Shown here: in pieces, positions 4,613 through 60,200 of the stretch
Position numbering within the stretch: the stretch's first letter is position 1
Layout: every line of letters starts with the position of its first letter
Origin: Nemertoderma westbladi
Lineage: Eukaryota; Animalia; Xenacoelomorpha
Length of the DNA stretch: 64,000 nucleotides
Assembly: GCA_032718475.1 (NCBI GenBank)
Contig: JAUCBJ010008130.1
Location: forward strand, 1-64,000
Direction: 5' to 3'
Notes under the pieces: model-generated
Told to the model about the DNA's origin: nothing
Seen by the model: only the letters and a program-made list of their open reading frames with translations
Databases searched by the model: none
Translations under genes and position numbers: made by a program

Positions 4613-4645
4613 TGTATCGATACATGTATATCGATCATTTCGTCA

Positions 4646-6124: not shown

Positions 6125-6380
6125 CTGAAATAAATTATATTAGATTGAGCAGATTAGAAAAAATAATAATCCATATATTCTATTATCTATCAATAATATA
6201 TTGGTAGTTCATTAAAATACCGAAAATAAAATGTATTTTAATTTGAAACTTTAAATGAAATTTTAATTTTTGAACCTATAATAAATCTGATCTTTATATT
6301 TAATTCTACCTTTACCTACTTTTACAGTACAATCAACTGAACTAAATACTGAATTAACTTATTTAAATTGATTTAATTGG

Positions 6381-22089: not shown

Positions 22090-22260
22090 CTGAAATAATA
22101 ATGTTAAAATTCAAATTCAAATTCAAATTCAAATTCGTATATTTCTTTCACTTATAACTATACACGAATTGCACAAATTAATATTGTAAATATTGGCAGC
22201 AGAGGCGCAGGCAATAGCAGAGCTAGTGGAGCCAGGGCCAATGCGTAAGTCATAAGTGGG

Positions 22261-35163: not shown

Positions 35164-36230
35164 TATTATTTTTTATTTAAACATCCGGCTTACGCCCCGG
35201 CGGCTATTATTGGTAAAATGGTCTAGCAACATCAATTTAATTAAAATAACACACAAAATAAGAGCAACAAGATACAATAACAATACAATACGGCCGGTTT
35301 TGGCATGTAAGGCCCGAAAAGCAAATAGTATCATATCAGTTAAAATAACATGTATCATTTGGAGTATTATTGATTAAGTATTATTTATTATACTTATGCT
35401 TTTATAGATATTATTATTATTGATCAAGATTATAAAAGTCCAATACAACTATGTGGCGAGCTGCATGTGAGCCAGTGGTGCAACTCAGTATGGTACCAAT
35501 AAAAAAGAGTTTATACTGACTAGCAGGACTCAGTTCGGTGGCTTGAGATTTCCATGTCGATTCCGTATGGCCTTGAAACTGTATCTGGAGACACTCAGAG
35601 AAGACAAACTTGGTAAACCGAGGTGCCATGCGGAGACACCATAACGGAAGAATATCTGAGCACTAGACAAACCTGCAAGGTGCAGACAGATTAAATGATG
35701 AAAGAAAAAAAGAACCTTTCTATTAGGACAATTTAAGATGCTGTAGGTAAATGACGCAGTTTTGAAGTGTAGGAAATCTTCCAGGTTGATCATACCAAAG
35801 AGTTTACATAGAATTCCATTAGAAACATAGTTTCCTATTGCACATATAGTTCTCATTGCTTTATGAAGTTGTAGTGATATCTCTGCAATATTGGGTTTAT
35901 CAAGTTCCGAGCATCCATACAGTATTGACGGGAGGCACATCACCTTCCATATTTTAACAACAACTGCCCGCAACAACAATAACACTGTTAATGCAAAGAC
36001 CACGTGCCTCCATTCTGCTGACACAAGTCCAAATTTTACATTTTACAAACTGAGTCAAAGATTGCGACGTCATGGGAAAGGGCAAACCTAGATAGTTGCA
36101 ATCCTTCACAGAAACCAAAATATTGCTGTCTGTCCCATTTATGAATTCCAATGATTCCTCTCCATAGCTCGTTCTAGCTCCATTCAGGTATACGAAATGA
36201 GTCTTTTTTATGTTTACAAGCAACTTATGT
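35164..36230 (-). mobile_element. 3' part of an APE-RT LINE (RTEX/Proto2-like), split by the BEL element
   Basis: Reads HKLLVNIKKTHF...YLG...MCLPSILYGCSE, continuing the RT that breaks at 50718. A-rich aataa tail at ~35164-35180. Confidence 0.8.
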
Positions 36231-37719
36231 TGTCCGCGGTATTTCAACTTTTCATAACGCGAGTTGAATATTTTTTGTATTTATTTAAAATGATTATTCC
36301 GATATCACTACTGGGTGCGGGACCATGGGTTTTGGGCACACTCAATGAACTGGGGGCGATTTATGGGCGAACTTTGGGGCGTCTTACAGGGTACGGGACT
36401 CATTTCAGGTTTATAAGGGCCAGGGGTGGGAGGCAAAATTAAGCAGTATTCAGGTTTGCCTGAGTACTATTAGGCCTAGCCAACGTCCTGCTGCCTGTAG
36501 AGGTGGATTTGGTAACTCGCTAGGTCTAAAGGACAAGGACTGCCCTTAGCGGTCCCTGGCTAACAGCAGTTATTACAAGCCTGAAAAGGATATCGGAAAG
36601 TATGCTGCTTGTGTCAGGGATTTGCGACGGGAAACGACAGCCCCCTTAGCCAAGCCGTACTGGTTCTCGATGACCGATCCCTTCGGGGTTCGCGAGGGGT
36701 GGGATGGACACGCGAAAGGGCGGCCGACTAATAGAGGAAGGGTTTGACGAGGACTGCCCTTAGCGGTCTCTGGTCAACAGCAGTTATTACGAGCCTGAAA
36801 AGGACATCGGAAAGTCTGCTGCTTGTGCCAGGGATTTGCGACGGGAACCGACAACAGACCCCTTAGCCAAGCCGTACTGGTTCTCGATGATCGTTCCCTT
36901 CGGGGTTCGTGAGGGGTGGGATGGACACGCGATGGGGTCGAAAGACAGAGGACTGGACTCTACTGGCCTACCGACTGTCGGAGCAGTTTCTCGGCCGCCG
37001 AAGCGACTATGAGCCTGAATAAGGACTCGGAAAGCCTAGGTGGTTGGGTCTCTGCGATGAACCGACGGACCCCTAGCCAAGCCGTACTGGTTCTCAATGA
37101 TCGTTCCCTTCGGGGCTCGTGAGGGGTGGGACGGACACGCGAACGGGTCCACCGACACGACAGACTCCTAGCCAAGCCGTACTGGTTCTCGATGACTGAT
37201 CCCTTCGGGGTTCGAGAGGGGTGGTACGGATACGCGACAGAGTCTACCGACTGGACCGACCCTTAGCCAAGCCGTACTGGTTCTCGATGATCGATCCCTT
37301 CGGGGTTCAGGAGGGGTGGGATGGACACACGACAGGGTCGACCGACACCGACACTACGGCACCAAAACTAGGACCGAGGGAAAATCTGGGGAACATTAGT
37401 TAGGCTAAAATCTGAGCGAACATTGGGTAATTAAATAATTTACTGTAGGGATTTATATTGTCGTGTATTATTATTGTGAATAATTTGGTGTATATTGATT
37501 TGGGGAAGCCCAATTTATTCTCAATCAAGGTTCAACTGTAGGGAAGTTACATTAAAGCGTATATCCAACCAATGCAGCTTTTTCTCAACCGCAATCTTGC
37601 ATTTAAGAACATTCCTTCTCCACAATCAATATCCGGTGACTGGCCGGGATTCCGTGGTCTGTAAAATTCCGCCTCCAGCATCGGCGTTTTCCCCCATGGT
37701 GTCGGGAATAACGGCAACA
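36231..37719 (+). repeat. 5' LTR (1489 bp) with internal structured repeats
   Basis: Aligns end to end with 49228-50717. Confidence 0.95.
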
Positions 37720-38115
37720 AAATTGAGAATAAAACGCGGCCAACTTCAACTGGTGGAAGTTGGGAATCCTACAATACTCTTCAAACTCTCTCCGTGCTTA
37801 CCAGCACCCACTACGAGGAAACCCTGGTATTTGAGTTAAGACAAAGTCGTGGTCTAATAAATCAACAAACTCGATCTAACCAACTCGTAGTCGGCAGATC
37901 ACATATTTGGAGAGTTGTTAACAGGGAGTGGAAGTATCGATCACACCCATTGATATAATCCAAGTTGAGCCAGGAATCTGGCACTTCGAGGTTGAAGTAC
38001 AAGGAACGAACGTCGGACAATTCAGGATTACCTTTCGGGTGGTCCAGGCTGAGTACAATACCTACGAGGAACTATTTTACGACATCGCACATCTAGCTAT
38101 CAACGAGGCGCTACA

Positions 38116-41100
38116 ATGACAATGAATAACGTATCCGATACCGATGAGATGGACCACCACACAGATTTGGAAGCCGACGAGGTACCGAACGTCAAGAACA
38201 TGGCCCGTCGACTAGGTGCTCTCAAAGGCGGAGTCACTCGAGCGTATCAACGTATAGAGAAGCAACTCAAAGGAGTCGAAACCCCCCTCAACGAGATACA
38301 AACTCAGCTTCAGAGTATCCGAAGTATCTTACAACGATACGAGAGAATGATACAGGCGTACCAAGAACTCATCCCTGCCACTGACCAGGTAAACTACCCC
38401 AAATTGGAAGAACACGTTGCACGCCTAGACGAATTCCGCAAACAACACCGGAGGACCCTCAGCCTCGTGAGAGGCTACGAAGAACAGTACTACAAGAGAG
38501 CTGAAAGAACAGATGCAGAATCGGTGCGAACCTCCAGCACCAGGACAGCAGTACATCGAAAGAGAACAGGGTCCTCTAGAAATCAGCACTCCAGCGCTAG
38601 GAGCACGGTGTCCGGTTCAGCACACAGCTCTCAAGGGGGTCAGTCACTCCGAGACCAGCTACGAGAACAGAAAGCATTAGCCCTCAAAGCTCGGATGGAA
38701 GATGAGTACGTTCAACTGCGAACCGAGCAAGATATATTAGCCGCCAAAATGCAAAAACGGGAGGCCGAACAAGAGGTTGAACGGCAGGCCGAGCAACGTA
38801 GACAGGAGGCTGAACAACGTGAACGAGAGGCCAAACAGGAAGCTGAACAACGTGAACGAGAGGCCAGACAAGAGATCGAACAACGTAAATGGGAAGCAGA
38901 AATGCGTAAACAACACCCCGAGGCCCAAGCGATTCTCACCCACAAAAATGCGGATATTGCGAAACTCGCGGAATACGAAGCCGCACTTATAGAACGAGAT
39001 ATTCAACTATACGAGGACTGGGAAAGGGATATAGATCAGGAATATGAACCAATCCCGGTACCGGAATTAGAGAAGTCATTTACACCAACAGCGGCGAAAC
39101 TTCCGAAACCCGAGATCCCGCCTACCATACAGTCTACATTATCGGCACAAGCACCGGTGTTCCATCCCCCACCGGTTACGCTTAAAAATGAGGAACCATA
39201 TTTCCCATCCAACCCCACGGCAACGAGTGTACCCAAGTACGAGCCTGAAAGGGACTCGGAACGGGACGCCACTCCTCGATCCAACAACCCGTTTACATCC
39301 ACACCACAAACCCGTAGTCGCGTCATCATTAAAACTCCACCTATCATTGATCCATCGAGTATGGGAGAGAGTGCCAATAACTATAACCCTCCGAACCACT
39401 CCAGTTCGGACGACGTCAGCATTATCCGGGCATTGGAAAACCGCCTCTCCATGCCCAAGGTGGAGATCCGCACCTTCGAAGGAGATCCTGTCGATTACCT
39501 CAGATTCAAGAAACGGTTCTTTGCGCAGATTGGATCAACGGACATAGCCGACGCACAGAAACTGGTATATTTATCGCAATACCTGGGTGACAAACCACGC
39601 CGAATCATCGCTTGTTTTGAGGGAGGTTCTCATGAAGCATACAACGACGCATGGAAAACTCTAGACAAAAGATACGGAAATACCGGGACTATAATTAATA
39701 AAACTCTAGAGAAACTGATACGAGACGCGGGATCACTAGGGGACCCACAGAACATCCAGGAATACTCAGATTCCATGAAGGATGCCTACTACACTCTGAA
39801 ACCCTTAAATAAGGAGGACCAGGTGAACAACATTCTAAACCTCCAACAGATCGCCCGGAAGTTCCCCGGATGGCTGCAAAGTAAGTGGGCCTATAAATGC
39901 GTAGATCTCCGGCGCAGACATCCAGATCGAGATCCCAGCTTCCTCGAAATGTCGGCATTCCTGGACGATATCTCCGAAGCCATGAATGACTCGATGTTCT
40001 CGAAACAGAGTCTCGCCAAGTTGGACGCAATAGAGAGCAACTCCAGGAGTAAGACACCCACTCAGAGGCCGAGATTCCGCCCCCCTCCGGTGAGCACGAT
40101 GGCTTTCACCATGGCCGAGGATTCCGACGATGAAGACTACGAGGAACCGACATCAGCCGAGGAATGGGCGTGTTATCTCGTGAATTGGGCACCCGAGAGG
40201 GAAGGCATCACAAACCCCCTTCTCTATCTCTATTGTGGAGAGAAACATAAAGTTGAATTCTGCAGGAAGTTCCAGTTTGCCGAACTCGTCCCACGCTTCG
40301 AGGCGATTATGAAACACCGAGGATGCTTCCGGTGTCTTGGAACAGGTCACTACGTTCGGGATTGCGACCAAAGGTCGTGTTGTGCGGTCTGTAACGACCT
40401 ACGTCATCACACGCTCCTCCACATCCCCGCGAACTTTGACTTCACCACCCTCCCCTTTCGGATTGAAGCCAAGCGAAGAGGAGAAACGAACCACGTTTCT
40501 AAAGGAACCCGGACAACCCAACGGAGAGAAACCAACCCGTTTAAAACCTCCACCGATGCATCACAAGTGACAAATATCTCAGCCACGATCAACCTTATAA
40601 ATCGCCGTTACATGGTCTTCGCCAAAGTAATCCCAGGAAGAATTCAAGGGGTCGGCAAATCCTTGACGACGCTCGCGTTCCTTGATAACGGGTCGGACGG
40701 AACCATCATCGACCGGGATTTCCTCGAGCAACTCGGCCTAGACTATGAACCTTTCCTTCCGGAACACTTCAAACGGCCCATACAAACTATCACCGACCAC
40801 AGAGAGGTAGAATCCGGGGAGGTGCAACTCCAGATGGAAGGGGTAATGAAGGGCTACGAGATGGTTAAGCTGACCATCAAGAACGCCTTAGTACACACAG
40901 ACCTCCGAGTGCGGTTCCGACAATCAGCCGAGTACGCCCCCCTCATACAGCTGGACCGAGACGACGTGGATCTAAGGTGCCCGCCGTTGGATGTAAACCG
41001 CATCACCCTACTGATCGGACTTGATACACCGGAACTACACATACCCACCGGAGACGTCGCCCGATCTATAAAGCAGGATGACGGCTTTTACGCTGAACGA

Positions 41101-43815
41101 ACAATAATGGGATGGACACTCTGCGGCATCAAGGAAGAGACTACCGACACCTATACATACCTTCCTAAATGTCAGATTAAAGAAAATGCAACATCCGTGG
41201 GTTATTGCTCAGCTACAGACCTCGATGAGGATTTATTTCTTGAGACCGAAAAAACCCAGCAAGAGATGACTAAATACTTTAATCTAGAGATCCAAGAGTT
41301 CGCTGAAAAGGATGAAAACCCGTCCGAGGAGGATCAATATTGTATGGATGTCCTGGACCAGGCCACGTTCAATGACGGACACTGGTGTTCACCCATGTTA
41401 TGGAAGGACCCAAGCAAACCAATGGCAAACAACGCCAACATGGCCCTTAGGCGACTTAAGGGGATTCTACGCCGGCTGAATGACCAACCCAAGATAAAGG
41501 AGAAATATAACACCGTAATCAAAGGATATCTCGAGGATGGATTAGCAGAAATGGTACCACGGAATGAACTGCAAGGGGGTAAAAGAACATATTATCTTCC
41601 AACCCACTATGTGGTAGAAGCCCGGAAGGGCGGTAAAATCCGAGTAGTTAATGATGCCGCTGCTATGTACCAAGGCGAATCCCTGAACAGTCAGCTTTAT
41701 ACAGGGCCCAACATATATAGTACACTTATTGGCGTATTTATCAGGTTCAGGGAAAACCGGATAGCATTCACCTGCGACATCAAATCCATGTTTCACCAGG
41801 TTCGTACGCTACCAAGAGACTCAGACTGTCTACGTATCCTATGGACGGATAAAACACTAACTCAACAGGAGATTAGTCAACTTACAATGAAGGATGTAGA
41901 CGTAATGCGTATGATCGTCAGGATCTTTGGCGCTAAGGACTCGCCGGTAGCATGTAGTGACATGCTGAAGAAGACAGCAACCATGTGCGAAAACGAGTTC
42001 CCTCCAACCGTCATAGAAACCATCCGACGATGCTTCTACGTGGACAATGGATGCGCCGGCGCAGATAATGTGGACGAGGCATATCGGCTAGCAATGGGGA
42101 TGGTAGAATGTTTAAAGAAAGGAGGTTTCCCACTCGTGAAGTTCAGATCCCACGACAAAAAACTTATGGAAAAGTTTCCGGAGGACATCCGACTGGACAA
42201 CAACAAAATGTATTCGGAGGATGTGGAACACCGTGTACTCGGTATTGAATGGGACATAGAATCAGACGAATTCATTTTCAAATATAAACCCCTACCCAAG
42301 CCTATGACGAAAAGGCGATGTTTGGCGATAAAAAGCGCAATCTTTGACCCACTAAATTTCATATCTCCGGTAACCTTGGCCGGAATGAACCTGATTAAGG
42401 AAATGTGGATAGAAGGACTGGGATGGGATGAAGAACTCCCCCCACACCTCAGTGTCAAATGGAGAAAATGGACGGAACAGCTCGAACACCTACATCTTAT
42501 GCGGATCCCTCGACCGTTCTTCCTCGATAAACTACCCACCGATATCTTCCAGCTCCATACCTTCTCGGATGCTTCGAATACCGGAATCGGCATAGTCACC
42601 TTCTTACGAAGACTAAGCAGCGATGGAAACGGCGATACGAGCTTTTTATTTTCTAAAGCTAAAACAGTATCCGGGGAATTCATAGCAACGATTCCAAGAC
42701 TCGAGCTACAGGCTGCAGTTTGGGCAGTGAGGCAGAACCGCATGGTCATGCGGAACCTACGAATCCCCATAGAATCTCAACACTTCTGGGTCGATTCGAG
42801 TATCGTTCTCTACTATCTCCACTCTCCATCCCGACGTCACACTACGTTTGTAGCGAACCGAGCCACAGAGATAAAACAGTGTACCGGCCGAGAACAGTGG
42901 CACCACGTAAACGGGAAAGAAAATCCAGCGGACTTATCAAGCCGAGGCGCCACCCCAAAACAACTCGGTAAAAGTAAACTCTGGCTTACAGGCCCAGAAT
43001 TCCTACAGCAGCCACAATTAACATGGAGTACCCGATTCGACCCCGAACTCGATAGCGGAAAATACTCCGAGGACGACAAAGAGATCCGTAAAGTCCATAG
43101 AAGCAACACAGTGGAAATTTATAGTTGTCTGACTGAGCCTGCAAAGGACTCGGGCAGGCACTATAACGTTGCGACGATCATTCAGCCAGCGGCGTCTTTA
43201 CATCTGTTAATCGAGCGAACTTCATCAATGAGACGGCTCATCCACCACGTTATAACCCTTCGCAACTTCCTACGGTGGAAAGACAACAAGCCAATAGTTC
43301 ATCGGAGTATACAAGAACTCATTATCGCGGAGAAGTGTATCATTGGATATGTCCAGAGAGAAAGTTTCCCCGATGAGTGGGAACAACTCAGTGCGGGCAA
43401 GACCTTGAAAACGGACAGCCCAGTCTACCAACTGAGACCAATGATGGGAGAGGACGGACTGATCCGACTGAATACCCGGATGGCAAACGCCCCGGTCGAA
43501 TATGAGGTTAAATACCTGGCGCTTCTGCCCGGAACTTCGACACTAGCCAAGCTATTAATTCAACAATGTCATGAGAAAAACCATCACACAGGACAGAACT
43601 GGATTATAGCTAATATAAGACAAAGATATTGGATCACCCACATCCAGCCACTGATCCGGAAAGTGTTGAAACGTTGCTTTACCTGCAGAAGATATCTAGC
43701 GCCACCACTCACACAAAAGATGGCCGACTTACCAGCCACCCATCTACAGCCCGATTCCCCACCGTTCTACGTCACCGGAGTGGACTGTTTCGGACCGTTT
43801 ACGGTCATCGAATGA
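38116..43815 (+). pseudogene. BEL/Pao gag-pol polyprotein (DUF1759-like gag, Zn knuckle, aspartic protease, RT, Pao RNase H, integrase Zn finger), inactivated
   Basis: FLDNGS, RVVNDAA, DIKSMFHQV, FYVDN (YVDD expected), FSDAS, TIPRLEL, NPADLSSRG. Premature TGA at 43813. Confidence 0.92.
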
Positions 43816-44640
43816 CGATCCAACATCAAATGCTGGGGAGCCATTTTCACCTGCCTTAGGTCTAGAGCAATCTACCTAGACATTGTGGTAAACCTTACGC
43901 AACACGCATTCATCAACGCTCTGCGTATGTTCGTGGCGAACAATGGGACATGTCGTCACATGTACTCCGATAATGGTACAAACTTTGTGGGAGGAGAAAG
44001 ATAACTTAGAGAGGCGATCGAGGAATGGTTTACCGATAACACCGCATCCCAAGTCTGGAAGGAACACCAGATACAGTGGCATTTCCAGACACCATTAGAG
44101 AAACTGATCGACTTAGTAAAACGATCCATAAGCGTCGCACTAGGAGACACCCGGGTAACCCTTGACACCCTCCGCACAACATTCTGCGAGATCACGGCTA
44201 CCCTGAACAACCGGCCCATTGTCCCTATCCGCGACGACCCCACAGACCTGGAGCCCCTCACCCCTAACCACCTACTGGGGAGACCCAAAATTCATGTTCT
44301 CCCAGAGACAATGTTTCCGGATCCCAACGATATCGCGAGACATACAAATTGGAAGAAGGCCCAAGCATTGGCAGCGCATTGGTGGAGAATCTGGGCCCAG
44401 GAGTACCTCATAACCCTCCAGACCAGGAGGAAGTGGAACAACACCTACAGGAACGTCGCAGTTGGCGACATGGTACTAGTGAAAGAAGATCTTAAAGACC
44501 GCATGTGTCCACTGGCCTGTGGCGCAAGTTGTGACAATACACCCGAGCAAAGATGGACTTGCGAGGACTGTGACGATACGAACGGCAAAGGGCCACTACC
44601 AACGCCCTATCCAGAGGCTGTGCCTTCTTGAAGGCAATGA
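43816..44640 (+). pseudogene. Disrupted integrase core and C-terminal DUF5641-like region
   Basis: WGAIFTC, YSDNGTNFVG, LNNRP, LTPNHLL, WAQEYL..LQTRRKW, RPIQRLCLL, spread across stops and frameshifts. Confidence 0.85.
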
Positions 44641-44994
44641 CAGCGGTGACTCTACGAGAGGTGATAAGTTCCCTACTCCGGATCCTGCTGCAGACATTGG
44701 TGACAATGCTAAACCCATGTAAACCCTTCTCATCATGTTGACAAACTCTTTTAAACTGTGATTTATCGACAATGATAATGGACCCCCCTTAAACCAACTG
44801 TAACCACGCAATGGTATTTGTGTTTCCTCGTGTGTTATGTGGAGTCCAGCGTCACCCTGCAGATGTTTCGACTGATGCAGGTTCGTTTATGTATTGTTTA
44901 CCCTGATTTTGGTCATCGGGACCAACGATATTGGATTATTGGAAATGGTAAAGATTTGAAGTGGAATTCATTGTATCCATTGTAGTATGTTATG

Positions 44995-45420
44995 TTGTCC
45001 GTTGCGTGCGCAGTTCGGGGCGTAGGTGGTGTAACTAGTCCAGCTGTAGATCCCGGATTGCCGCGCAACACCCCCTCTATCCCGTTATTCTGGTGGGTCC
45101 ATGGTGCATCCACATGACTTCGACGATAGAGGGTTTTATGTTTCTCAGTCGCGTTATTCTGGTGGGACCATTGCGTGGATTTTGGGGCGTAGGCGGTGTA
45201 ACTAGTCCAGCTGTAGATCCCAGAATGTTGCGTAACCCCATCCCACATGACTTCGTCGACTGAGCTTTATGTTGTTGGGAGTGTTATTCTGGTGGGTCCC
45301 TGGTGCATTCCACGTGACTTCACTTCCAGCGTCTTCATTGTCCGTTATGTGTGCAGTTTGGGGCGTAGGCGGTGTAACTAGCCCAGCTGTAGATCCCAGA
45401 TTGCCGCGTAACACCCCTTC
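44995..45420. repeat. Shuffled ~170-bp direct repeats between pol and the accessory gene
   Basis: ggggcgtagg(c/t)ggtgtaactag(t/c)ccagctgtagatccc occurs 3 times (~45017, 45184, 45360); gttattctggtggg occurs 3 times. Confidence 0.8.
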
Positions 45421-45983
45421 CATGACAAAGATTTCCCAAAGAAGATGATTGAATGTAGTTGGAAATGATGAAAAGAATCAGACAACCTTACTATAAACCG
45501 AATGGTGACACGTATGATGATGAAAATGAAATGATGCGCACCCTGGTGCTGCGCTTATAACAAATGATGATAGCCTGGGGGCTATAACCCCAATGATAAT
45601 GTGGAAATAAATGAAAATGTGAAATAAATATGATGAAATGTGGAACTAAATGATGAAATGTGTTGAAATAAATGAAATGTGAAATGAAATAATAATGAGA
45701 AATGAAAAAAGACAAAAGACAAAAAAAAGTACAAAATGTCTAAAGAAAAGAATTGGAAAAAAAAGGACATAAAAAGTCATAAAAACTGGTTGGATATTAA
45801 TGTATAGCTATAGTAACTGTAAATGCTGAATGTATTAGCAATAAGATGATGGATGCCTATATAGCAATGTTATTTCATAAACTGAATTAAAAATAAACTG
45901 AATTATTCTGCAATCACTATAGTTTCAGACTTTCTGGATTTATAATTAACTGATATAATTTTGCAACGGACATAATTGTAAAT

Positions 45984-48900
45984 ATGGACCCAAATCGCCA
46001 AATTATCGGCGAATTACGTAATACGATAGATCTACTGGAATATCCACAACCTGGATCCCCTAACTTTGATACAAATTGGAGCACCCTGATAAACGAGAAT
46101 GTGCGAGTCGTCAAATTCTGCGGGCGAGAGGGACCGGATTCCCGGAATCTACGAGCCCTCCGGTTGTCCGATGCTAGTACGAGACTGAAAAGAACTCGGA
46201 ACGCAAAGGCTACCGGAGGGGATGAGTTGTCATATTGGGAAACGTTTCGGCAAAGCGTCTACAGATCCCGATGTTTGATATACGACAACGAGGGAAATGC
46301 GACGCCCACCTCGAAAGCGATGACGTTGGCGCGATGTCAAAGTTTCGTCGACGACAAGAGTACGTACCTCACACACTGGGGAAACCTGTCGGAGTGTACG
46401 GCGACGCTATGAGAGGAACGTATATCGATCATCCAGAATCGCGACGACTACCAGGAAAAGTACGGGGCGAGGAGTTCCAGTACTCCTCTATGGGAGTCCA
46501 TGCTGGGCTCTAACTGCTGAGGACACCAAATCTCTGGATGGCACATTCACAAGAATGCTACGCCGGGTTCATTGTGTCAAGTACAATGCACACATCTCCA
46601 ACCAGACACTATATAACATTGGAGGTGTCTCATTGATTCCCCCAAGCTTGACACTAGAACAAAATCGCCTCCGCTTTGCAGGACATTGCTTTCGCCGTGA
46701 GGACCAGCCAGTGCATAATCTTGTACTTTGGCAGCCTCATGGAGTGAATAAGCATGGTGGACAGCCCATGACTTTCTTGAGACGCATCTTAAAGGACACT
46801 GGCCTTAAAGATGCGCATGATCTAGCAAATGTCATGGGTGATAGGGAGTTGTGGCGGTGCAATTTTGTTGACAAGCCGGCACAGCATTCTTAAAAATGCA
46901 GCTGCAATGCAGCATGCCGATCCTAGTACGGGGCGAAAGAATACGGTCGATCCTTGGTCGTCGTCCTCGGAACCCTGGACGGTTTGGTATTGGTGTGTCG
47001 AATATTCCCGACACCCAGACAGGAAGTGCAGGCAGCCGGAGCGATCTGGGTACTACCTCCGGAAATCCAAAGGATCCTCTTCGACTTCGACGTCATTAAA
47101 ATCGGGTCGGATATAAAGGCGGACGTCCGGAACGACTACGCGAACGCTCCTTTAGGAAGAGATCGACGAGACGACCTCAACGCCCTTAGCCATTGCGTCG
47201 ACACTCAAACGCTATTAGCCTGGTTACGATTCGCCGAGTTCATGCGAGGATTCCGAGAGGTGAGACCGACGAAATCCGGGATCGGCTACCTCGCTGTGCT
47301 AAACGGCGGCATCGACTTCAAACCTCAGAAACTCCGGGATTATAATAAAAAATATGGTGGATACCCGGGATTAGAAATAAAGAGCGAGCGAGAGGGTCGA
47401 TGAAGGACCTGGAGAGAAAGTGGACGATACACCAAAGGTGGGAGAATCCGGATCGACGGAACTACATCTACATCGTTATGGAATCATACACCGTCGCTAA
47501 GTTTATCTGTAAAACCCTCGATAACCTCATTACGGCGGTTCCTCTTTCCTTCGTCGACTACGACTGGAACGAGGTTATAAACCACGTGTTCAAAGCGGTC
47601 GAGAATATTACACCAGGAGAGACGAAAACACTCGCCGTTATCGATTCCTGGGACGAGAACGGACCTTACAACATCCCTACGATTACCGATCTTCTCGGTG
47701 CTGAGGAGCCTCTGATTTCCTCGGAAGGGGAAGAGCTATGTCTACATGAGGGCGTTCTACTGTCTACCCCAAAGCGACCACTCGAACCGGAAGCTGCATA
47801 CGAACCGGCCGCCAAACGGGTTGCCTCGGCCGAACCTGCGACGGAAGCAGGTGCTTCCACCCCACTCGGCTCCGGTAGCTCTGCGAGGGAGTTAATCACC
47901 ACCTCCGCGTTGAGCGACTTCGGCGATATATGCCAAAGGTTATCCCCATATCCTTTCCCGGGTGGCGAAGACTGGTCTTCGGAGATTCCGAGTACCAGCA
48001 ACCAACGGTCCCGCTCAGCGATACTGGTTGAAAAGGGTCCCAGCGCTGCGCCGACTCCCGACGATCTCTTCGGAATCCCTCCGTCGAAAACCCCGGCACC
48101 TCTTCACCGACCAGCGGTGGTAACTATACCCTCCGTTCCTCAGGATCCTATGCGACTAACCCGTTGGTACGCCGAGCAAACCGAATGGATCCACCGCCAG
48201 AAATGGTCGTCCGAGTTGAGACCGGCAGGACATAAAGAAGGTTATCGGAGCGAGGACCTACTGCACAAAAGCCCAGCCTTCCGCGGGCTACCAGCCACCG
48301 CGAATATTCAGAAGAGTGACCGACGACTCGAGTATTACGTCGGCGTCCCGATTCCGATATTCCCCGGTCGAGAGATGCAGTTGGAGGTGTGCGGTAACTG
48401 CGGTTCAGAGCAGTGCCCACGCGGTAGAAGAAATCGGGTTACCGATTCGTGCCTCCAGCTCCTCGGGATACGTTATTGCCCATACTGCGCGACATCGGGC
48501 CACGACGTTTCCGTCTGTCCGATCCTATATAAACTCTGCACTACGTGCGGTTTCCGTGGACATTCCGCTAGCCCCCGCTGCTATATCAAATGTCCTACCA
48601 AAGATGTTACCGCTATGGGAAATATGGTCATGTTTGAAACATACGCAAACAGCCACATAAGGACCAAAGCGCGGAGAAACGCTGGGAATATCGCGCAGGA
48701 GATGGCGTGCGGGTATTTTTCCTTCCCGGAGCGCCTACATACGACGGCAATGCTACCTTTCCATTACGTGGATCTGTTGCTTAGTGCCGGATTATTCGGC
48801 CCATTCGAAGTCCTTAGACGCTTATACTCATATAAAGAGGAGTTCGGTGACGGAGAGTGGTTCCTTGAGGCTCGCAACTCCGAGTTGGAACGACGAACCG

Positions 48901-49049
48901 ATATGATCCCATTGCCATCGAAAGGAAGAGCCGCCAGGAGACAAGCCGAAGCGTTGCTCACGATGGATGTTGACGCTCCCCTACCAGCTCTAGCGATCGA
49001 CGAGAGTCGACGGGCGAAGAGGAGAAAGGCGTATCAGAGAAAGAAATAG
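45984..49049 (+). pseudogene. Accessory gene of the BEL element: DEDDy 3'-5' exonuclease-like domain, Pro/Ser-rich linker, CCHC zinc knuckles (split by an RTE insertion, one TGA and one frame change)
   Basis: ExoI-like CLIYDNEG (46284-46292). ExoII-like LPPEIQRILFDFDVIKIGSDIKAD. ExoIII-like NYIYIVMESY. Knuckles CPYCATSGHDVSVC and CTTCGFRGHSASPRC. Confidence 0.7.
46471..46924 (+). mobile_element. 5'-truncated RTE LINE inserted in the accessory gene, 12-bp TSD
   Basis: TSD agtacggggcga at 46459-46470 and 46925-46936; near-identical to the copy at 22261-22822. Confidence 0.93.
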
Positions 49050-49227
49050 TGGACCGGGATACTCTAGGAACATTTATTGAACATTTATTTTTATACATAT
49101 ACATATATGAACTCTAGGCCAAATTAATCAAGACTATGCAATATTAAAAATTTGGGTTTTTTTATATGGAAATGACCTACGCAAACTCAATCTACCGATA
49201 GACCTCACGAAGGTCATTGGGGGGGAC

Positions 49228-50717
49228 TGTTCGCGGTATTTCAACTTTTCATAATGCGAGTTGAATATTTTTTGTATTTATTTAAAATGATTATTCCAAT
49301 ATCACTACTGGGTGCAGGACTATGGGTTTTGGGCACACTCAATGAACTGGGGGCGATTTATGGGCGAACATTGGGGCGACTTACAGGGTACGGGACTCAT
49401 TTCAGGTTTATAAGGGCCAGGGGTGGGAGGCAAAATTAAGCAGTATTCAGGTTTGCCTGAGTACTATTAGGCCTAGCCAACTTCCTGCTGCCTGTAGAGG
49501 TGGATTTGGTAACTCGCTAGGTCTAAAGGACAATGACTGCCCTTAGCAGTCCCTGGCCAACAGCAGTTAATACGAGCCTGAAAAGGAAATCGGAAAGTCT
49601 GCTGCTTGTGTCAGGGATTTGCGACGGAAAACGACAGCCCCCTTAGCCAAGCCGTACTGGTTCTCGATGACTGATCCCTTCGGGGTTCGCGAGGGGTGGG
49701 ACGGACACGCGAAAGGGCGGCCAACTAACAGAGGAAGGGTTTGACGAGGACTGCCCTTAGCGGTCTCTGGTCAACAGCAGTTATTACGAGCCTGAAAAGG
49801 ACATCGGAAAGTCTGCTGCTTGTGCCAGGGATTAGCGACGGGAACCGACGACAGACCCCTTAGCCAAGCCGTACTGGTTCTCGATGATCGTTCCCTTCGG
49901 GGTTCGTGAGGGGTGGGACGGACACGCGACGGGGTCGAAAGACAGAGGACTGGACTCTACTGGCCTACCGACTGTTCGGAGCAGTTTCTCGGCTGCCGAA
50001 GCAACTACGAGCCTGAATAAGGACTCGGAAAGCCTAGGTGGTTGGGTCTCTGCAATGAACCGACGGACCCCTAGCCAAGCCGTACTGGTTCTCAATGATC
50101 GTTCCCTTCGGGGCTTGTGAGGGGTGGGACGGACACACGAACGGGTCCACCGACACGACAGACTCCTAGCCAAGCCGTACTGGTTCTCGATGACCGATCC
50201 CTTCGGGGTTCGAGAGGGGTGGTACGGATACGCGACAGAGTCTACCGACTGGACCGACCCTTAGCCAAGCCGTACTGGTTCTCGATGATCGATCCCTTCG
50301 GGGTTCGGGAGGGGTGGGACGGACACGCGACAGGGTCGACCGACACCGACACTACGGCACCAAGACTAGGACCGAGGGAAAATCTGGGGAACATTAGTTA
50401 GGCTAAAATCTGAGCGAACAGTGGGTAATTAAATAATTTACTGTAGGGATTTATATTGTCGTGTATTATTATTGTGAATAATTTGGTGTATATTGATTTG
50501 GGGAAGCCCAATTTATTCTCAATCAAGGTTCAACTGTAGGGAAGTTACATTAAAGCGTATATCCAACCAATGCAGCTTTTTCTCAACCGCAATCTTGCAT
50601 TTAAGAACATTCCTTCTCCACAATCAATATCCGGTGACTGGCCGGGATTCCGTGGTCTGTAAAATTCCGCCTCCAGCATCGGCGTTTTCCCCCATGGTGT
50701 CGGGAATAACGGCAACA
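49228..50717 (+). repeat. 3' LTR (1490 bp), preceded by a polypurine tract
   Basis: ggggggga c|tgttcgcggt...ggcaaca|tatgt. Confidence 0.95.
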
Positions 50718-53700
50718 TATGTCTTTCAAAGTAATTGCAGCATAGGGCCAAAAGTTTCTCTGCATCAGACTTCATGTTTGCTGCAAGAATGATATCATCA
50801 CCATAGCTCACTCCACTGAAAGATTCTGCCTTTATGTGCACACCAAGACCACTGTTATCAATCTCCTTAAAAAAACTAGACATATAGAAATTAAAAAGAA
50901 TTGGGGATAACATCCCGCCTTGTCTTACACCTCTCTCTAAGGGGAATGCTTGACATATCCGTGTTCTAGATGCCAAGAAAGCTGAAGCTGAGCAGTAATG
51001 GTTTCTTAGTGTTTCCAATAGGTTGTGTTCAGTGTTAGCATCCTCTAATTTCCTAATTAACATTGTGTAGTCAATGGTATCAAAAGCTGATGACAAGTCT
51101 AATGATACTATATACATTGATGAACCCTTTTTTGTGAATTCATTTACTAAGTTGTTGACCAGTGCATACGTCATTTCTGTATTGGTTTTTTGTTTATAAC
51201 CCGTCTGCAAGTCATGAGAGTCCAATGGCAATTCAGGGAGTATAAGCATTTCCCAAAGTTGGCGATAACAGCTACAATTGCAATTCCATGATAGCTCTTA
51301 GTTGAAAATTTATCCAGATTCCTGCCCTTATATAATGGCATTAACAGAGACATGCTCAACTTCTTTGGACATTAACAGGAGGCTCTCATAGAATTGAATA
51401 TGTATGCTAAGGCGCTGCAGAGCCCATCAGAGATTCCAAAAAATAAATGTTCTGACTTTAACCAGAAGCAATCAGCAGCTTTTTTCCTGTTTAAATTGCG
51501 GATACCACTTACAATGCATTCTGTGGACAGGATTGATGTGTCGTTTAATGTCTTCGCTTCATGAGACGCTATATTTTCCAACGACTTACCATTTAAGGTG
51601 CTATCCTTGTATGTATCCTCGCAGTGCTGCTTCAGCTTCCTGAACATTTCATCTGTCATTTCCTCCTGGGGAGCACGGTTCTTGGTAAGCTTCCAGAACT
51701 TTACATCATCATCTCTGCAGGACTCTACCAACTCATAATATGATCAGAATACTCAAATTCTACTGAGCTTCATAGCAACTTGATTGTATCTCCTTGTGGC
51801 AGCCCAATAACCTATGTAGGAGACATTAGACGGATCCTTTATACTGCCTTGATTGATCCAGATCTCCTTTGCCCTGTCAACGATACATTTTAGTTTACCA
51901 AGACTGGCATTGTCAGCATGAGATTTCCATCTAGAGTTTACAGATCTTGGTTTCCTATTATCAATAAAGCTGGTTGGAATGTAAACATCGGATGTTTTCC
52001 TCAGGACAGCAATGACTTTATCCAATACAATCTCTGCATCGAGTGGATTTGTAGAATAATTTTTATAGGGCTTGATAAAGGATGATAGCTTATCTGATAC
52101 AACCTTGCGATACTGTTCAAGCTGTTTAGTGGTTGCTTTACTGAAGTATACAATTTTTCTCTTATATGTGCATGTGCAATGAGATGATGCGGTCCAATTA
52201 TCATTCTGTCGTTTGGCTGAAAGACTCAGTGTTGTTCTAACTGGAGTGTAGTCTGAGAGATTACTTGGATCCAATCCAAAGACCATGCTAGATGTTATAT
52301 TTGGAGCAATATCTGGTGATAAAAGAATGTGGTCAATGTAAGAAGATCTTTGCACAACACCATTTGATCTAAAGAAAAAAGTTGAATGTAGTTCATTTGG
52401 AGCAAACCAAACCACCAAACCATGGGGTTATGCTACATTTTGAACAAAGATGTCATCAAAACGGGAGGTTGCAGTGTTGACGTTTCCACTGTCACTACTC
52501 AGACGACCAAGGCTACCATTGATGTCTCCTAAAACAACTACTGGGATGTTTTGAGTTCTATCATCGATCAATGTTGCCAGTCTCACACACTGTTGAATGT
52601 AAGAATCCTTATCAGATGGAAGGTTGCAGTCAGCTGGCATGTAGACAGCCATAAGCGCGATATCCATAATAGTTGGGTGATTCTTTAGTTATACAGCAAT
52701 GATGAGGTCATTAGTTAGTTGTGACTGGGGTGGAATACTGCATCAAATCATCCTGCATTAACAACATGATGCCACCCTGAGGCCGGCCATTATAAAAAGG
52801 GTCTTTCATGGCATCAGCAATTGTTGTGAGAATTTTATAACCACTAAAGGGTTTGTCCTGATTCAAATAAACCCCTGTATCAAGAGGACCTAGCCAGGTC
52901 TCTTGAAGAGCAAGTATGTCGGGCTTATGTCTATCAATTAAGGTCTCGATGTACAGTCTGTTATGCACAAAACCCTTGCAATTTAATGTAAAAATGACTA
53001 TGTCTTCAACCTTTTTGCACTTTGCTGTTCCATCTTTGGAAAAGCTTGATTGTGTTTTGGGAGTCCTATTAATAGTGTTTGCCTGATAGTGTTTGCTTTA
53101 TGGAGTGTTTGTTGCAGGAACAGTGACTTTCTAAAAACGGTTTGTATTGTAGCATGGAGTTTCTAGAAGTACTCGCGTGGTACAGGTGAAACTTCTTTGA
53201 GGGGTGACTTGAATCCATTATTGTTATAGTTCTTTTGTAATGAATCTTTTAGTAGATGCTGATTGAAATGTATCTGGCTATTGCATGATGTAATTGCTTG
53301 AGTGCCCCTCGATTGATGCCACTGTTGATCAGGACTTAGATACTGGCCTGTGTTGTTCTTGAATTAATGATGCCCTTGAATTGTTCTTGTTGGATAAGGT
53401 TTTGATTATTGGTTAGATTGGTCGTATTATTGATGTTGTGTTGGATGTTGTCCAGTGATTGGTGATGATGGCCTTGTTGTCATTGAGAAGACTGAGAGTA
53501 ATGTTGAAAGTTGTTCAAAGGCATTCCCCTATGCACTTGATGGCTGACATAATTGTTAATGGTAGATGGGCCATGCCAGTTGTTTTTTCTTTCCCTGTCA
53601 GGGTCATGTGCAAACCCATGTCTCGTTTCATGAAGAACCTGTGGTGGAAATGATTTAGTGGAAAGTTTATAGTCCTTTTGATTCGTGTGCCTATTCGAGG

Positions 53701-53748: not shown

Positions 53749-54270
53749 TTGTATAATAACTAATAATCACAAACCCCGTCCTCTTATAATATATAACTCT
53801 GTAGTAGTCAGTAGTAGTAGTAGTAATAGTAGTAGTAGTAGTAGTAGTAGAAGTAGTAAGTAATAGTAAAGGAGATCGGTTTAAACCAAAGTGATAAAGT
53901 AACATTATTATATAACATAATCATATAGACAAAGTAGAATAAGATACAGATTCATAATTATTTTATCAAACTCATGTACTACTTACTTCAATGTGCCAAT
54001 TGTAATAATAATTAAACATATTATTCAGATTAATCTGCGTTTGGCCCTATAAGATATTATACTGACGTATTTTATATTATTATATCCATCCGAGTAAACA
54101 AGAAGTGAAGTAAATGTTTATTATTATAGTTTTAGAAATTGAATGATATACCCAAGATAGTGAAATAGATAATATACCAGAAATTGCGAGTGAACCCAAA
54201 AGTGAAAACTATCTCGTTGAAAACGACAACGTGTAGCCGAATTAACGAACTTGAATAGATTTGATCTCCA

Positions 54271-57200
54271 ATGGCTAGCGCCAACCGAACGCCATCAACG
54301 AACCATCCATCAGTGGAAACGAGCTCAGACCTCATTGACATAAGGGATGAGCCCAGACGAGTATCAGTCGTGGATGGCAGGATCGAGTCGGGCCGAGAAC
54401 TCGCCCGAACCCCGAGAACGAACCCAACACAAGCGGAGGGCGCCTGGCAACCAACAACGAGCCCAGGCGGTGTGGCACGCTCAATTCCTGGGGCTGCTAG
54501 AGCAAGCATCGGCGCTCGCTTACGCACTAGCAGCTTGGTGGGAACTGGGCAGGGGCCACCCACTCAACCAGAACGAGCTGTCCTCCCAACTCACGAACCT
54601 GAACCGGCCAATATTCGACACGAACCTGAAAGAACCTCGACACAGACAACACGACCCAAAGACCCCCAGATCCAACGATCATCACGATCACAACGAAGTG
54701 CTGTTCTGATTGACCCCCAACAACCAGAGATCCTTAAACGACGATCTCAACGAGCAGAACTGACTCTGTTTGGAACTGTTGAGAACCCAACTGGTGAACT
54801 GCCGGTGGAACCGGAGCTAAGTATACTTTTAAATAAAATAACGGTCTACATAGATCATTTACGTGCGTGCGGAGAGGAACAAAGGGCTGTTGAGATTGAA
54901 GACCGGGTCAAAGCCCAGTGTCAATCTCGAGAGACCCGTTCCAATCCAAACGTTAGGAGGGAACCCAGAGGAACCCAGAGTGAAGATCTGAGGGAGGGAG
55001 ACCCGACCCCAAGCATTATCACCGAGGTGCCACGCGTTGATCCAGAGGATTCTGTGTCCCAGGTGACACCAGACTCCATCTGGGAGAACGTCCCTAGGCA
55101 GAATGATCGTGCTTCAGGGGTCGGATCTATACACTCATCCACGATCAATCGAATGAGAACGAATGCAGGGATTGAACAAGCAAGAATGGAGCTAGCGGAT
55201 GGCATGAGAGAACAAGAGCGTGAGTTAGAGAGAGAAAATAAAAGGAGAGTAAGTGAACGTGAACTGGAAAGAATAGAAAAAGAGGAACGTGAGGAACGTG
55301 AGAAAAGGGAATGTGACAAAAGGGAACGAGAGAGAAGGGAACGAGTACAAAAGATAGCAGATGAGATGGAACGGGATAAAAGGGAAGGTGAGATTGAAAG
55401 GGAACGGGCAAGGGCCAAGAGGGAAATGGTTCGGCTAAATGCAGAACAGTGCATATTACGTATGGAAGAGGAGGCATCTCAACTTGGAATTTCCCAGAGG
55501 GGAAATAAAACCAAGTGTGATTCAATGAATATACTAACTACTGTAGAACCCAATAACCTAACTACTGTAGAACCCAATAACCGAGAAATTGAAAGTAACC
55601 TTCTAGCCATAGAAACACCCCGTTATCCATCACCCGTACGTAGAATATCAGCGCGTACAGTAAAGAAACCTGTTATTACATCAAAACCCGAATATTGTAT
55701 TAGTAGCAGAACACCAGCAATGACAGGGGGCTTTAATAGCACGTTAGGCAACTCTGCTTCAAAGGGCCCCAGAGGGGCTAAGAACCAAACATATAATTTG
55801 GAAAGCCCAACAAATACTGTAAATGCTGCAGTTACCAGCTGTATACATAGAACAGGGCACCATATCGAAACCCCTGTGTCAATCATCCAGTACACTGGTG
55901 ACGAAATGTCAGAACAAGCAGGCATGAATCATAACATTCAGACTGAGGTACCGGTATCGGATTGCAGCAGTAGGCCTAATAGACGGCTGCATTCGACCGG
56001 TCTACCGGTAACACATTCTGCGCCAGTTTGCGGTACACCAGATTACAGCTGCAGTGATCAGCTACATGCGACTGGTCCGCCGCTATCCAATTCTATAGGC
56101 CTACCTGTACGCAGTACTCCAGACTGCACAGCATGCAGTAGGCAGAATCCCGATTATTATTATTTACCGGTATCTAGCCAGAACCATAGGCCTAATGCTA
56201 ATAGTAATACTCAAATACCGGTATCTGAAAGTTTAGATAGGCATAATCTTAATGTACCGGTATCTTATGATTATAGGCCAAGTTATGTAGGCTTACCTAA
56301 CAGCCTGATGCATACCGGTACTGTTAATCATACATGTAGCCCTGCTGATGTAGGTCAAAATCAACATCAGTCTATAGACCACCCTATACCATCCGAATTT
56401 AATCAAAATATCGGTATCCAATATGAACCAAGGTATGGTTATGGGACACCATTGAGCAGTACCGGTAACCCAAGCCATTTAAACCCCAGAGCCGAGGAAT
56501 TTCTACCCGTCCCCATAGGCGAAGTAGGAATGCCAGATGGCCAATATAAATACAAAACCCGTAGCGAAGTGAGTGAAACCCCACAGCAACGGGCAGTAAC
56601 CTTTTCAAATCAAATAAATAATGGACCCGGATTATCAAAAATACCGAGTCTAGCGTACCCATCTATAGGAGCGCAAAGACAACAGAATAAAAATAATACC
56701 GCTGGCTACAATTACACAGGAGAAGCAGCCCCACGTGGACCCCCTTATGTACAAGCAGGAAGGGTCCCTCAATGTTATCAGAGCGGAGGAGAGAGTGAGT
56801 TAAGTCATATGGCGGCAATAACAGACGCCATAAAAGCCAAGCTAGAACTGCCACAGGCTAAACCGTTTACCTTCAGTGGAGAATACCCGGAAGAATATAT
56901 TCAGTTTCGACAGCTATATACCACTGAAATTCTACTGAAACATAACCTGTCAGAAGCACAGAAGATGACCTACCTGATGGTTTACACAACTGGCAAAGCA
57001 AAGGAAGTTGTTAGACAATATGCAGGCCTAACAGATGGTTTGCGACTAGCATGGGAAGCCATTGAAAAGCGATATGGAAATCCTTCACGTATAATGCAGG
57101 CAACAATCAACAAATTGGTCACTAACAAACAAATCACCACGACTGCCGAGTTTAGGGACTTTACAGAAAGGGTAAACAAAGCCCTGGTTGCCTTGAAGGA

Positions 57201-60200
57201 ACTCGATATGCCGCATGAGTTGAATGGCATCCATAACATGCGAAAAATAATTGAACTAATTCCCTATTGGGCGAGGAACGCATGGAGAAAGGAAGCAGCA
57301 CGGACTCGCAGCCAACTGAACCGCGAACCAACCATGAACCAACTGGCGAAATTCCTTTCAGATCAAACCGAGATACAAGATGACCCTGTATTCGCAGAGG
57401 GACTACTATCAGCTGGTATCGCTGAGCGCCGGGACCGATCACATTCACGGGATGACTCAACCCGACAATCGAGAGCAGATTACCCGCGAAAAACAAATAT
57501 GCTGGTACCAAAGAAATCATTTGAATCTAACAAAGGGATGATAAAACCTGAACGAGAGCAAGTCTACACAACAACGTCGACTAGTCCGATGAAGAGCCTA
57601 CAATCGGACAAACAAGTCCGTTTCTCCAGCTACTCCCCAAAGCCACATACCCCAGATAGAGATTCCCAGGAGTTGGTATACACCCTTGCAACCTGTGATC
57701 CAAGCGCAAAGTGCTATCTACATCCAAATGCAAGGGACCATCAATTCGTGCAGTGTACCCAATGGATAAATGCCGCTGCGGATGAAAAATGGGACTATTT
57801 AAAGAAGAATGGACTGTGTAGGAGATGCTATGGGCGTGGCCACATTGGACGCGACTGTCCGCGCAACTCCAACACCAGGCCTGAACCCAGAACATATGAA
57901 CGATCCAGATCATACTCACCCGGAGGAGCGAGCGGGCTGACACCCCTCACAAAGGAAACTAAAAATCTAAAACCCCATAGTAACCGAGGAGATACTGATA
58001 CTACTACTGTTAACCAAAATAAAAATGAGAATCTAACATCTAAGACAGGGGGGGATCAGACCCAACATCCTAACCCTGCCTGGATGGCGAGATACAAGGA
58101 TCCCCAGGGATCTGAAGTGAGTGGAACCACTGTTAATAAGACCCAGGCAGTGACCCACATGGCGACATGTATGTCCCTGTCAGGGATTAAAGTGTACCTC
58201 AAAATTGTACCAGTAAAAGTAATGTATAAAAATGAAAAACAAGTAACAACATATGCCTTCCTAGATGATGGTGCGACTATAAGTCTAATAAGTCGTACCC
58301 TTGCTGATACTCTGGGAATGGAGGGAACCAGAACTAAGTTAGGCCTGGCCATGGTGGGCCACCAGACAACATCAATGGGGGCCATGAGTACCAAGTGCTC
58401 CATAGGTGCTCTGGAAGGCCGAGGGACACTCATCATTCATGATGCTGAGGTAGAAGTAATACCAGACGTTGGAGTTAACTGTACCCAACCAGATGAGGTA
58501 GAAATTGAGAGATACCAACACTTAAAGGGAATTAACTTAACAAACTTGCACATTGACATACCCTATGTGACTGTACTGCTTGGGATGAACAATCCTGAGG
58601 CACATGAAGAACTGGAAGTTAGGAAAGGTAGCAACCCCGGGAAGACACCATGGGGAAAGCTAACACCATTTGGGTGGTGTGTGACTGGACCACTGGAAAC
58701 AACAGACTATATACACAACAAAACGAAGCGAGGTCTGGTGAATCATGTGGAAATAACTAAAGACTTAGAGACATTACTGAATAGGGACTGTGAGGGCCTT
58801 CATGACAACACATTGGGAGACTCTCCAGAGGACCGTAGGGCCTTACAGACTCTTAAGGACTCAATACAACTGATAGATGGACACTACGAGGTAGACATGT
58901 TGTGGAAGGACCCCAATGAACGGCTTGAAAACAACTACATAATGGCGAGAAATCGTCTGAGAAAGTTAAAAGAAAAACTGAGGAAACTACCAGCAGCAGA
59001 AGAAGCCATAAACAAGGCAATATGTAAGTATATAGAAAGGGGCTGGGCAATAGAACTTCCAGAGGACATACAGGAAACTGACCGGACGTATTACTTACCG
59101 ATACACACAGTGTGGGAACCAAGAAAGAACAAATACCGAGTAGTACATGATGCTGCAGCGAAGTACCATGGAAAATCGCTAAATGATTACCTTGTTCGTG
59201 GACCCAATATATACAACACAGGACTAGACGTTCTTCTAAGATTCAGGAAGGGAATATTTGCTTTCACATGCGATGTGGAAGCAATGTTCCACCAGGTACG
59301 AGTGAACCCAAAAGACAGCAACAGCTTACGGTTCCTTTGGTATGAAGGGGAGCTAGGCTCAAAGGAACCCAAAATCTACAAAATGATTGTCCATATTTTT
59401 GGTGCTAATTCATCTCCATGTGCGACAACATACGCTTTGAGAGAGACTACAAATGGCGAGAATCCTGCAATCCAGAATCCATCAGCAGATACAGTGGAAA
59501 TGATTCGAGAACATTTTTATGTTGATGACGGACATGAGACAGGAAACTCAGAGGAGGAGTTGGTCAGGATTGCCAAGGAGGCTAAACTTTGTTTAGCGGG
59601 GGGAGGATTCAACCTGACCAAGTTTTTATCAAATTCCGAATATATTACCAACTGCATGACAGACGGGACCCAACAGGAGCCACTGAACAAACTGACCACA
59701 GAACCAGAATACAAACCAATGATAGAAGCTGATGGAGACAGTGACGAAGTTCGAGCTTTAGGGATAGTCTGGAACCGAAGAACAGATGCATTTGAGTACC
59801 ATATGGCGAAAATGAAAAGAGGGAAACATACTAAAAGGGAATATCTATCCTTTGTTGCCCGGATCTATGACCCAATGGGTCTACTCTCAAGGATCACAGT
59901 TGTTGGTCGACAAATACTTAGGGAAGCCCATCTACTGAAAGTAGGTTGGAATGATGAACTTCCCGAAGGAATAAGGAAGAAATGGGACAAATGGATGGAT
60001 AGTTTACAACTACTAGATAAGATCACGATAGATCGGGCCTACTTTCCCGACGGAAACATGGAAAACTTAGAGATACATATCTTCAGTGACGCCTCAGACA
60101 AAGGCTATGGAGCAGTAGCCTATGTGGTTCAAAGACAGAATAATAGAAGGAGGGCACGGGTTGCATATAGTAAGGCGAGACCGGCCCCATTAAAAATCGT

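Follow-up and report, generated by a model that had tools for sequence, protein, structure and literature searches.

A third gene with a likely exonuclease fold and zinc knuckles in a BEL/Pao retrotransposon of Nemertoderma westbladi

What kind of gene stands between pol and the 3' long terminal repeat (LTR) of a BEL/Pao retrotransposon in the xenacoelomorph Nemertoderma westbladi, and what could it do for the element that carries it? The locus lies in a stretch of 64,000 nucleotides (contig JAUCBJ010008130.1 of assembly GCA_032718475.1, positions 1 to 64,000 of the forward strand), which we call the window and to which all coordinates refer. The original prediction, made from the letters of the window, was that a third open reading frame (ORF3) in the env position encodes an exonuclease fold of the WRN/Mut-7/EXD type followed by zinc knuckles. 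That reading is supported by searches of the ESM Atlas, by a profile comparison, by a distant homologue (P0001) and by contigs from sister copies of the element. We consider it highly probable that the locus is a decayed copy of a third gene that is family-wide and selected in these BEL/Pao elements and that combines an exonuclease fold with knuckles.

The element itself, 14.5 kb in length, is a complete BEL/Pao retrotransposon, since two LTRs enclose a gag-pol with a Pao peptidase, DUF1759, an integrase zinc finger and DUF5641 (Pfam: Peptidase_A17, 9e-38; DUF1759, 2e-13; Integrase_H2C2, 2e-8; DUF5641, 4e-13). The order of the gag-pol domains – protease, reverse transcriptase (RT), RNase H, integrase – agrees with that of BEL/Pao (Belpaoviridae). 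The two LTRs are 97.5% identical (27 transitions and 9 transversions in 1488 columns). The copy is dead, since stops interrupt pol at 43813 and 44002 and its integrase part is broken further.

ORF3 runs from an ATG at 45984 to a stop at 49047-49049 and is likewise broken. The breaks lie just where the original prediction had placed them: an in-frame stop at 46410, a frame change near 47400, and a 454-bp insert (46471-46924) with a 12-bp duplication on its two sides (46459-46470 and 46925-46936), leaving the gene in three pieces. We take the insert to be RTE-like from its motifs, Pfam having given no match; a second copy of it, 97.4% identical, lies on the minus strand at 22269-22724. The reconstructed product would have roughly 860 residues. 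The ExoII, VDTQ and YIVME motifs, the two CCHC knuckles and the basic tail were all found as first described (motif starts: YDNEG at 46281, GSDIKAD at 47104, VDTQ at 47197 and YIVME at 47469; knuckles at 48477 and 48537, with a degenerate third at 48390). The linker of piece 3 is rich in Pro, Ser, Thr and Ala, and a conserved aromatic C-terminal domain follows the knuckles. Env-like features, namely a signal peptide, a fusion peptide and a membrane anchor, are absent: the basic tail stands where a C-terminal membrane anchor would be, and the most hydrophobic 19-mer of the product (2.1) is the core beta hairpin, while the maximum in P0001 is 1.2.

A gene broken three times in the copy at hand could be a neutral passenger or a host gene fragment that was inserted only once, and there is a precedent in that the env and GDSL ORF3s sequenced by Rodriguez et al. 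are described as varying mostly neutrally within a genome (PMC5408684). Sister copies, sampled as short contigs of four public runs (three samples from three studies) aligned to the region, tell otherwise. In all four runs contigs pass directly from 46458 to 46925, so that the rejoining of ORF3 by removal of the insert, as originally proposed, is what the sister copies actually have. Essentially all of the depth at the stop site (46410-46412) reads another letter, again in four of four runs, and an indel lies at the frame break in three of the four. The three breaks thus look specific to the present copy. One sister contig leads from the pol-ORF3 spacer into piece 2 and lacks the insert; a second, some 20% diverged, extends over 47179-47845 and 48128-48773, the gap being part of the linker. 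Depth over ORF3 is of about the same order as that over pol and approximately a hundredfold below that of the insert in the four runs; the BEL/Pao family carrying ORF3 is abundant. In each of the four runs the depth of the RTE-like fragment is very high.

The same contigs allow a tally of selection. Among 25 of the 26 variant rows listed for 46215-46465 (the stop site being excluded), 16 are silent, against an expectation of 22-30% (p between 1e-5 and 5e-4; rough dN/dS 0.16-0.24). It supersedes a weaker tally with 14 of 31 silent (ORF3 rows among 40 listed of 779; p 0.007-0.05), which was skewed towards differences that are fixed. In view of the sister joint, the differences at the stop site and the frame break, and the excess of silent sites, ORF3 belongs to the family and is under purifying selection; the sister copies carry the segment, as the original prediction required, and the selection that it had proposed to look for is present. 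The passenger explanation is further weakened by the retention of the gene in a diverged subfamily and in a homologue of only about 28% identity. It is now largely refuted, and we give it hardly any credence.

The homologue came from a HMMER search in which piece 2 was run against 1.84 billion representatives and gave two matches; the other, P0002, is a repeat protein matched by chance. P0001 is a protein of 648 amino acids encoded in one uninterrupted frame on a single ENA contig of 9449 bases. It is 28% identical to piece 2 (E 6e-17) and, in a separate match, 32% identical to the knuckle and C-terminal part of piece 3 (E 7e-11). Where the window gene has two intact knuckles and a degenerate one, P0001 has three of the CCHC type, with a match to HIV-1 nucleocapsid (E 1e-4); a basic tail closes both proteins. 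By these matches P0001 is an intact distant homologue with the same layout as ORF3. Word-indexed protein searches produced nothing beyond it, and no related loci were found in viral, metagenome and prokaryote contigs. Phage and plasmid matches by tblastn at E 6-10 were weak, and the one examined was due to chance.

With respect to the fold, the ESM Atlas assigned 27 of the 30 matches of piece 2 to PF01612 (0.93) and 25 of the 30 matches of the P0001 domain to the same family (0.94), in the latter case with 180 shared features and the description 'Werner syndrome-like exonuclease'. A profile built from 14 bacterial RNase D/PolA exonuclease domains ranked P0001 first among 437 targets, and against the alignment of P0001 with piece 2 it gave a collinear match over 178 columns with a score of 33.1, versus at most 21.8 in 100 shuffles. 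The product of ORF3 thus likely combines a WRN/Mut-7-type exonuclease fold with nucleocapsid-like zinc knuckles. Could the N-terminal domain have some other fold and its motifs match by chance? Such a view can draw on the databases: Pfam is silent on pieces 1 and 2 and its matches on piece 3 stay below threshold, NCBIfam has no match, and the PHROGs matches all have E above 0.1. Searches of PDB sequences found matches to the knuckles only, with none to WRN-exo, Mut-7/Nibbler, EXD1/2 or Egalitarian. No HRDC domain turned up in Pfam at E up to 1, but Pfam overlooks the exonuclease domain too. Foldseek and VIA searches with low-confidence AlphaFold models yielded no meaningful structure match, so that of the DEDD-fold test originally suggested the profile side gave support and the model side did not. 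Against this, the Atlas searches with piece 2 and with P0001 concur with the collinear alignment of the profile and with the spacing of five catalytic positions in P0001 (see below), and a wrong fold seems to us very unlikely.

Several observations do weigh against our reading of the locus and have to be set beside this evidence. BLASTP finds no match between piece 1 and P0001, and the bacterial profile misses the X read-through of the window gene. The hhalign probability of the profile match is 41%, and the shared-feature counts of piece 2 in the Atlas are 155-165, as opposed to the 170 typical of true family members. PF01612 itself reaches only E 0.2 on P0001 in Pfam and is absent from the pieces in the window. 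Two AlphaFold models, built on shallow alignments, were unusable (predicted local distance difference test scores of 44.6 and 40.4). As to the family, contig depth is not copy number, and the linkage of ORF3 to pol is seen in the present window and is absent from the listed sister contigs.

Is the putative exonuclease an active one? In P0001 the predicted catalytic positions are D62-x-E64, D130, Y229 and E233 (D-E-D-E), all five correctly spaced. The ExoIII tyrosine is kept in both P0001 and the window gene and the canonical aspartate is a glutamate in both, giving Y-x3-E in place of Y-x3-D; we have therefore filed the domain as DEDDy-derived, not as canonical DEDDy. The window gene keeps the ExoII aspartate, DTQ and Y-x3-E in register, and all three MAFFT modes align its ExoII aspartate with that of P0001. 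ExoI is more troublesome. The original prediction had put it at DNE, a motif that is indeed present, is the sole D-x-E of piece 1 and has no listed variant among the sister copies. It is also the best ungapped match to ExoI of P0001, though not significantly so (810 of 2000 shuffles reach it), but for an ExoI it lies some 50 residues too early, and about 50 residues would have to be inserted ahead of the second strand. QNR is where ExoI falls in all three MAFFT modes, and the strand-helix-strand context of bacterial ExoI, scored without the catalytic columns, is best at QNR (38 of 1000 shuffles), whereas its score at DNE is reached by 1000 of 1000 shuffles. Because the alignments prefer the degenerate QNR, the family in the window may be a pseudo-nuclease. 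For the present we regard an active nuclease and a pseudo-nuclease in this family as about evenly balanced.

What might such a protein do? Some of the relevant evidence lies upstream, in the spacer between pol and ORF3. This spacer folds better than any of 100 shuffles (z -3.8) and holds the best-folding of 325 windows in the element. One hairpin occurs there in three copies (44997-45076, 45164-45243 and 45340-45419), among other repeated stem-bulge-stem units; none of these hairpins has an Rfam match. In the three copies 93% of the cells are paired, and 3 of 25 pairs show a compensatory change (15 of 500 shuffles). Coming from three paralogous copies, this covariation is modest evidence, a limit to be counted among the points against our reading. 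Between the candidate splice acceptor and the ATG of ORF3 there is no further ATG; if this acceptor is used, the spacer would be present in unspliced RNA only.

We propose, tentatively and at somewhat less than an even chance, that the ORF3 protein binds RNA in the nucleus, its target being the transcript of the element itself. The protein would be made from a spliced RNA via the acceptor and carried into the nucleus by the basic tail; there the knuckles and the surface of the exonuclease fold would bind the unspliced transcript, for which the spacer hairpins are a candidate site, and the bound protein would promote the survival and nuclear export of this RNA, in the manner of CERV and Cer1. 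With a complete active site the protein could also trim single-stranded 3' ends, but this step is optional to the scheme. The proposal draws on the nucleocapsid-like knuckles, on the basic tail that P0001 shares, on the structure of the putative intron and on two precedents. The first, CERV from the Cer1 element of Caenorhabditis elegans, is reported to be spliced, required for the export of genomic RNA and endowed with a pseudo-GTPase domain (PMC10309623), and the second, Egalitarian, is reported to bind stem-loops by its exonuclease-homology domain, with the catalytic residues dispensable (PMC13186709).

The nearest fold class, however, is WRN-like and includes Mut-7/Nibbler/EXD. These enzymes have small-RNA roles in the cell, and the protein could instead be an anti-silencing nuclease, one that destroys or wrongly trims small RNAs of the host, or double-stranded RNA, directed against the element. 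The small-RNA roles are discussed in part in PMC5408684. The retention of D62-E64-D130-Y229-E233 in P0001 and the abundance of the family would suit such a nuclease, and the nucleoprotein exonuclease of arenaviruses, which removes immune-triggering RNA (PMC7968707), is a precedent for it. Yet ExoI of the window family is perhaps degenerate, and the nucleocapsid-like knuckles and the structured spacer suggest the element's own RNA as the target, so that we think this explanation unlikely, if well worth keeping in mind.

A further possible role concerns the start of reverse transcription. Just beyond the 5' LTR there is no tRNA-type site; instead, a 12-nt segment that starts 2 nt past the LTR has a perfect complement within the LTR, a complementarity reached by none of 1000 shuffles and by 1 of 382 internal windows. 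We regard this pairing as a candidate self-priming signature. A TATA-like word precedes the LTR 12-mer by about 25 nt, and an ATTAAA stands at 37551. Single-strand 3'-5' exonucleases halt at duplexes. If reverse transcription does start from a fragment of the element's RNA, that primer might be annealed by the knuckles and then shortened by the exonuclease from the 3' side as far as the 12-bp duplex. A tail resembling a nuclear localisation signal (NLS) is ill-suited to work inside particles and catalysis is uncertain, and we consider primer trimming rather improbable. Returning to the nuclear RNA-binding factor, its most developed form would be that a BEL/Pao lineage has made of a captured WRN-type exonuclease a Rev-like regulator – spliced, nuclear, possibly catalytically dead here and active in relatives – that binds hairpins exclusive to the unspliced RNA of a self-primed element. 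Taken as a whole, this conjunction appears improbable to us.

How new is such a gene? The original prediction knew of nothing like it in BEL elements, and in this it overstated the case, as DEDDy ORF3s of LTR retrotransposons were published in 2017: Rodriguez, Kenefick and Arkhipova (PMC5408684) described them in Juno and Vesta of bdelloid rotifers, common also to Athena/Terminons, a report repeated in three reviews (PMC5718144, PMC6431247 and PMC6338049). Like those of Juno and Vesta, the present gene is likely a family-specific, DnaQ-like exonuclease gene downstream of pol, in the env position. It differs in its BEL/Pao carrier, in its two or three knuckles (which the accessible text of PMC5408684 does not mention), in its conserved C-terminal domain and in its basic tail. 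The Juno/Vesta motif is worded DEED in that text, whereas our ORF3 has the ExoII aspartate and an ExoIII glutamate and P0001 has D-E-D-E. The separation from the Juno, Vesta and Athena ORFs is by description only, none of them having surfaced in the protein searches. What is new here, then, is the BEL/Pao carrier and the fusion to knuckles; the presence of a DEDDy ORF3 in LTR retrotransposons was already known. Among the papers listed by our literature searches, which left outside most subscription journals as well as Repbase and GyDB (where such a BEL family may be recorded), we found no exonuclease third gene in BEL/Pao, nor any functional test of the rotifer genes after 2017, and the word 'exonuclease' is absent from the available text of a BEL/Pao survey (PMC3118150).

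Compared with cellular proteins, ORF3 belongs by the Atlas and profile comparisons to the same fold class as WRN-exo, Mut-7/Nibbler, EXD1/2 and Egalitarian, and it would differ from all of these in its ExoIII glutamate, the possible loss or displacement of ExoI and the knuckle fusion. Like CERV, it is a non-env accessory gene of an LTR retrotransposon with an NLS-like tail, a cysteine-rich region and a probable enzyme-like fold; the fold is likely of the exonuclease type and not that of a pseudo-GTPase, and we draw an analogy without a claim of homology. The carrier shares with Belpaoviridae the LTRs, a single gag-pol frame, the Pao peptidase, DUF1759, DUF5641 and a polypurine tract (PMC8742986 and the accessible text of PMC3118150). 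The published profile of that family has lengths of 4.2-10 kb, LTRs of 0.2-1.2 kb, gag, pol, sometimes env, and a tRNA-Arg or -Gly primer site (PMC8742986); our element, 14.5 kb long with LTRs of 1.49 kb, a third gene other than env and a complement of its own LTR as candidate primer site, departs from this profile, in which the tRNA site is typical but does not define the lineage.

Features of the BEL/Pao element and of its third gene, with positions in the window
Feature	Position	Strand	Remark
Target-site duplication, 5 bp	left 36226..36230, right 50718-50722	.	either side of the element
5' LTR, 1.49 kb, TG...CA ends	36231..37719	+	window self-comparison
Candidate self-primer in LTR	37514..37525	+	perfect 12-nt complement of 37722-37733
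Primer-binding position	37722..37733	+	2 nt past 5' LTR, without tRNA-type TGG start
gag-pol, BEL/Pao type	38116..44631	+	Pfam; broken in present copy
Structured spacer, repeated stems	44990..45430	+	folding versus shuffles
Acceptor-like site	45923..45928	+	sole one in AT-rich stretch before ORF3
ORF3 piece 1	45984..46458	+	candidate ExoI DNE (46284-46292) and QNR (46434-46442); in-frame stop 46410-46412
5'-truncated non-LTR (presumably RTE-like) insert and 12-bp duplication	46459..46936	+	absent from sister copies
ORF3 piece 2	46937..47400	+	beta hairpin, ExoII Asp (47122), DTQ motif (47200)
ORF3 piece 3	47403..49049	+	ExoIII Y-x3-E (47469-47483), linker, knuckles, C-terminal domain, basic tail
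Polypurine tract	49219..49227	+	directly before 3' LTR
3' LTR, TG...CA ends	49228..50717	+	window self-comparison

Other features of the element and its surroundings can be described more briefly. Each LTR contains five repeats of about 76 nt around a CCCTTCGGGG core (36641-37333 and 49638-50331); they fold no better than shuffles (z -1.3 to +2.2), and the idea that they might be ribozymes was dropped for this reason. Rfam has 0 matches in 36000-51000. A decayed LINE (long interspersed nuclear element) on the minus strand flanks the element (35530-36225 and 50723-53100), its right part having Pfam matches to an RT (RVT_1) and an endonuclease and its left part being, as its motifs suggest, of the same kind; the BEL element appears to have inserted within this older LINE. 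A second BEL/Pao element, at 54265-62112, is a single open frame of 2615 codons, 28% identical to the main one over 1579 columns. It has no frame of more than 93 codons within 1.2 kb after its pol, and no matching LTR pair was seen nearby.

Farther away on the contig, host gene pieces lie on the minus strand at 2455-6134 and 21383-22147 (one exon with a tectonin domain, one mucin-like and rich in Thr and Ala, and one LamG-like), and a large tandem array of about 260 copies of a 29-bp unit occupies approximately 10300-18500. An open frame of 1176 codons on the minus strand (6372-9902) has no Pfam match at E 0.1 and presumably comes from a non-LTR retroelement, judging from its motifs. Frames at 30504-31654 (+), with inverted repeats at 29937-29979 and 32234-32276 and no Pfam match on the frame scanned, we take on the same footing to be transposase-like.

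For future work the family offers several handles: P0001 as an intact natural protein, the spacer hairpins as a candidate RNA target, a candidate primer duplex, and the choice at ExoI between an active and a dead enzyme. Should the Rev-like regulator prove real, it would be the first regulatory pair in the style of complex retroviruses in Belpaoviridae, and its capture would be independent of that of the rotifer exonuclease genes. More generally, a selected exonuclease-type ORF3 in BEL/Pao, in which knuckles are joined to the fold and of which P0001 is an intact distant homologue, suggests more than one recruitment of RNA-trimming folds by LTR elements.

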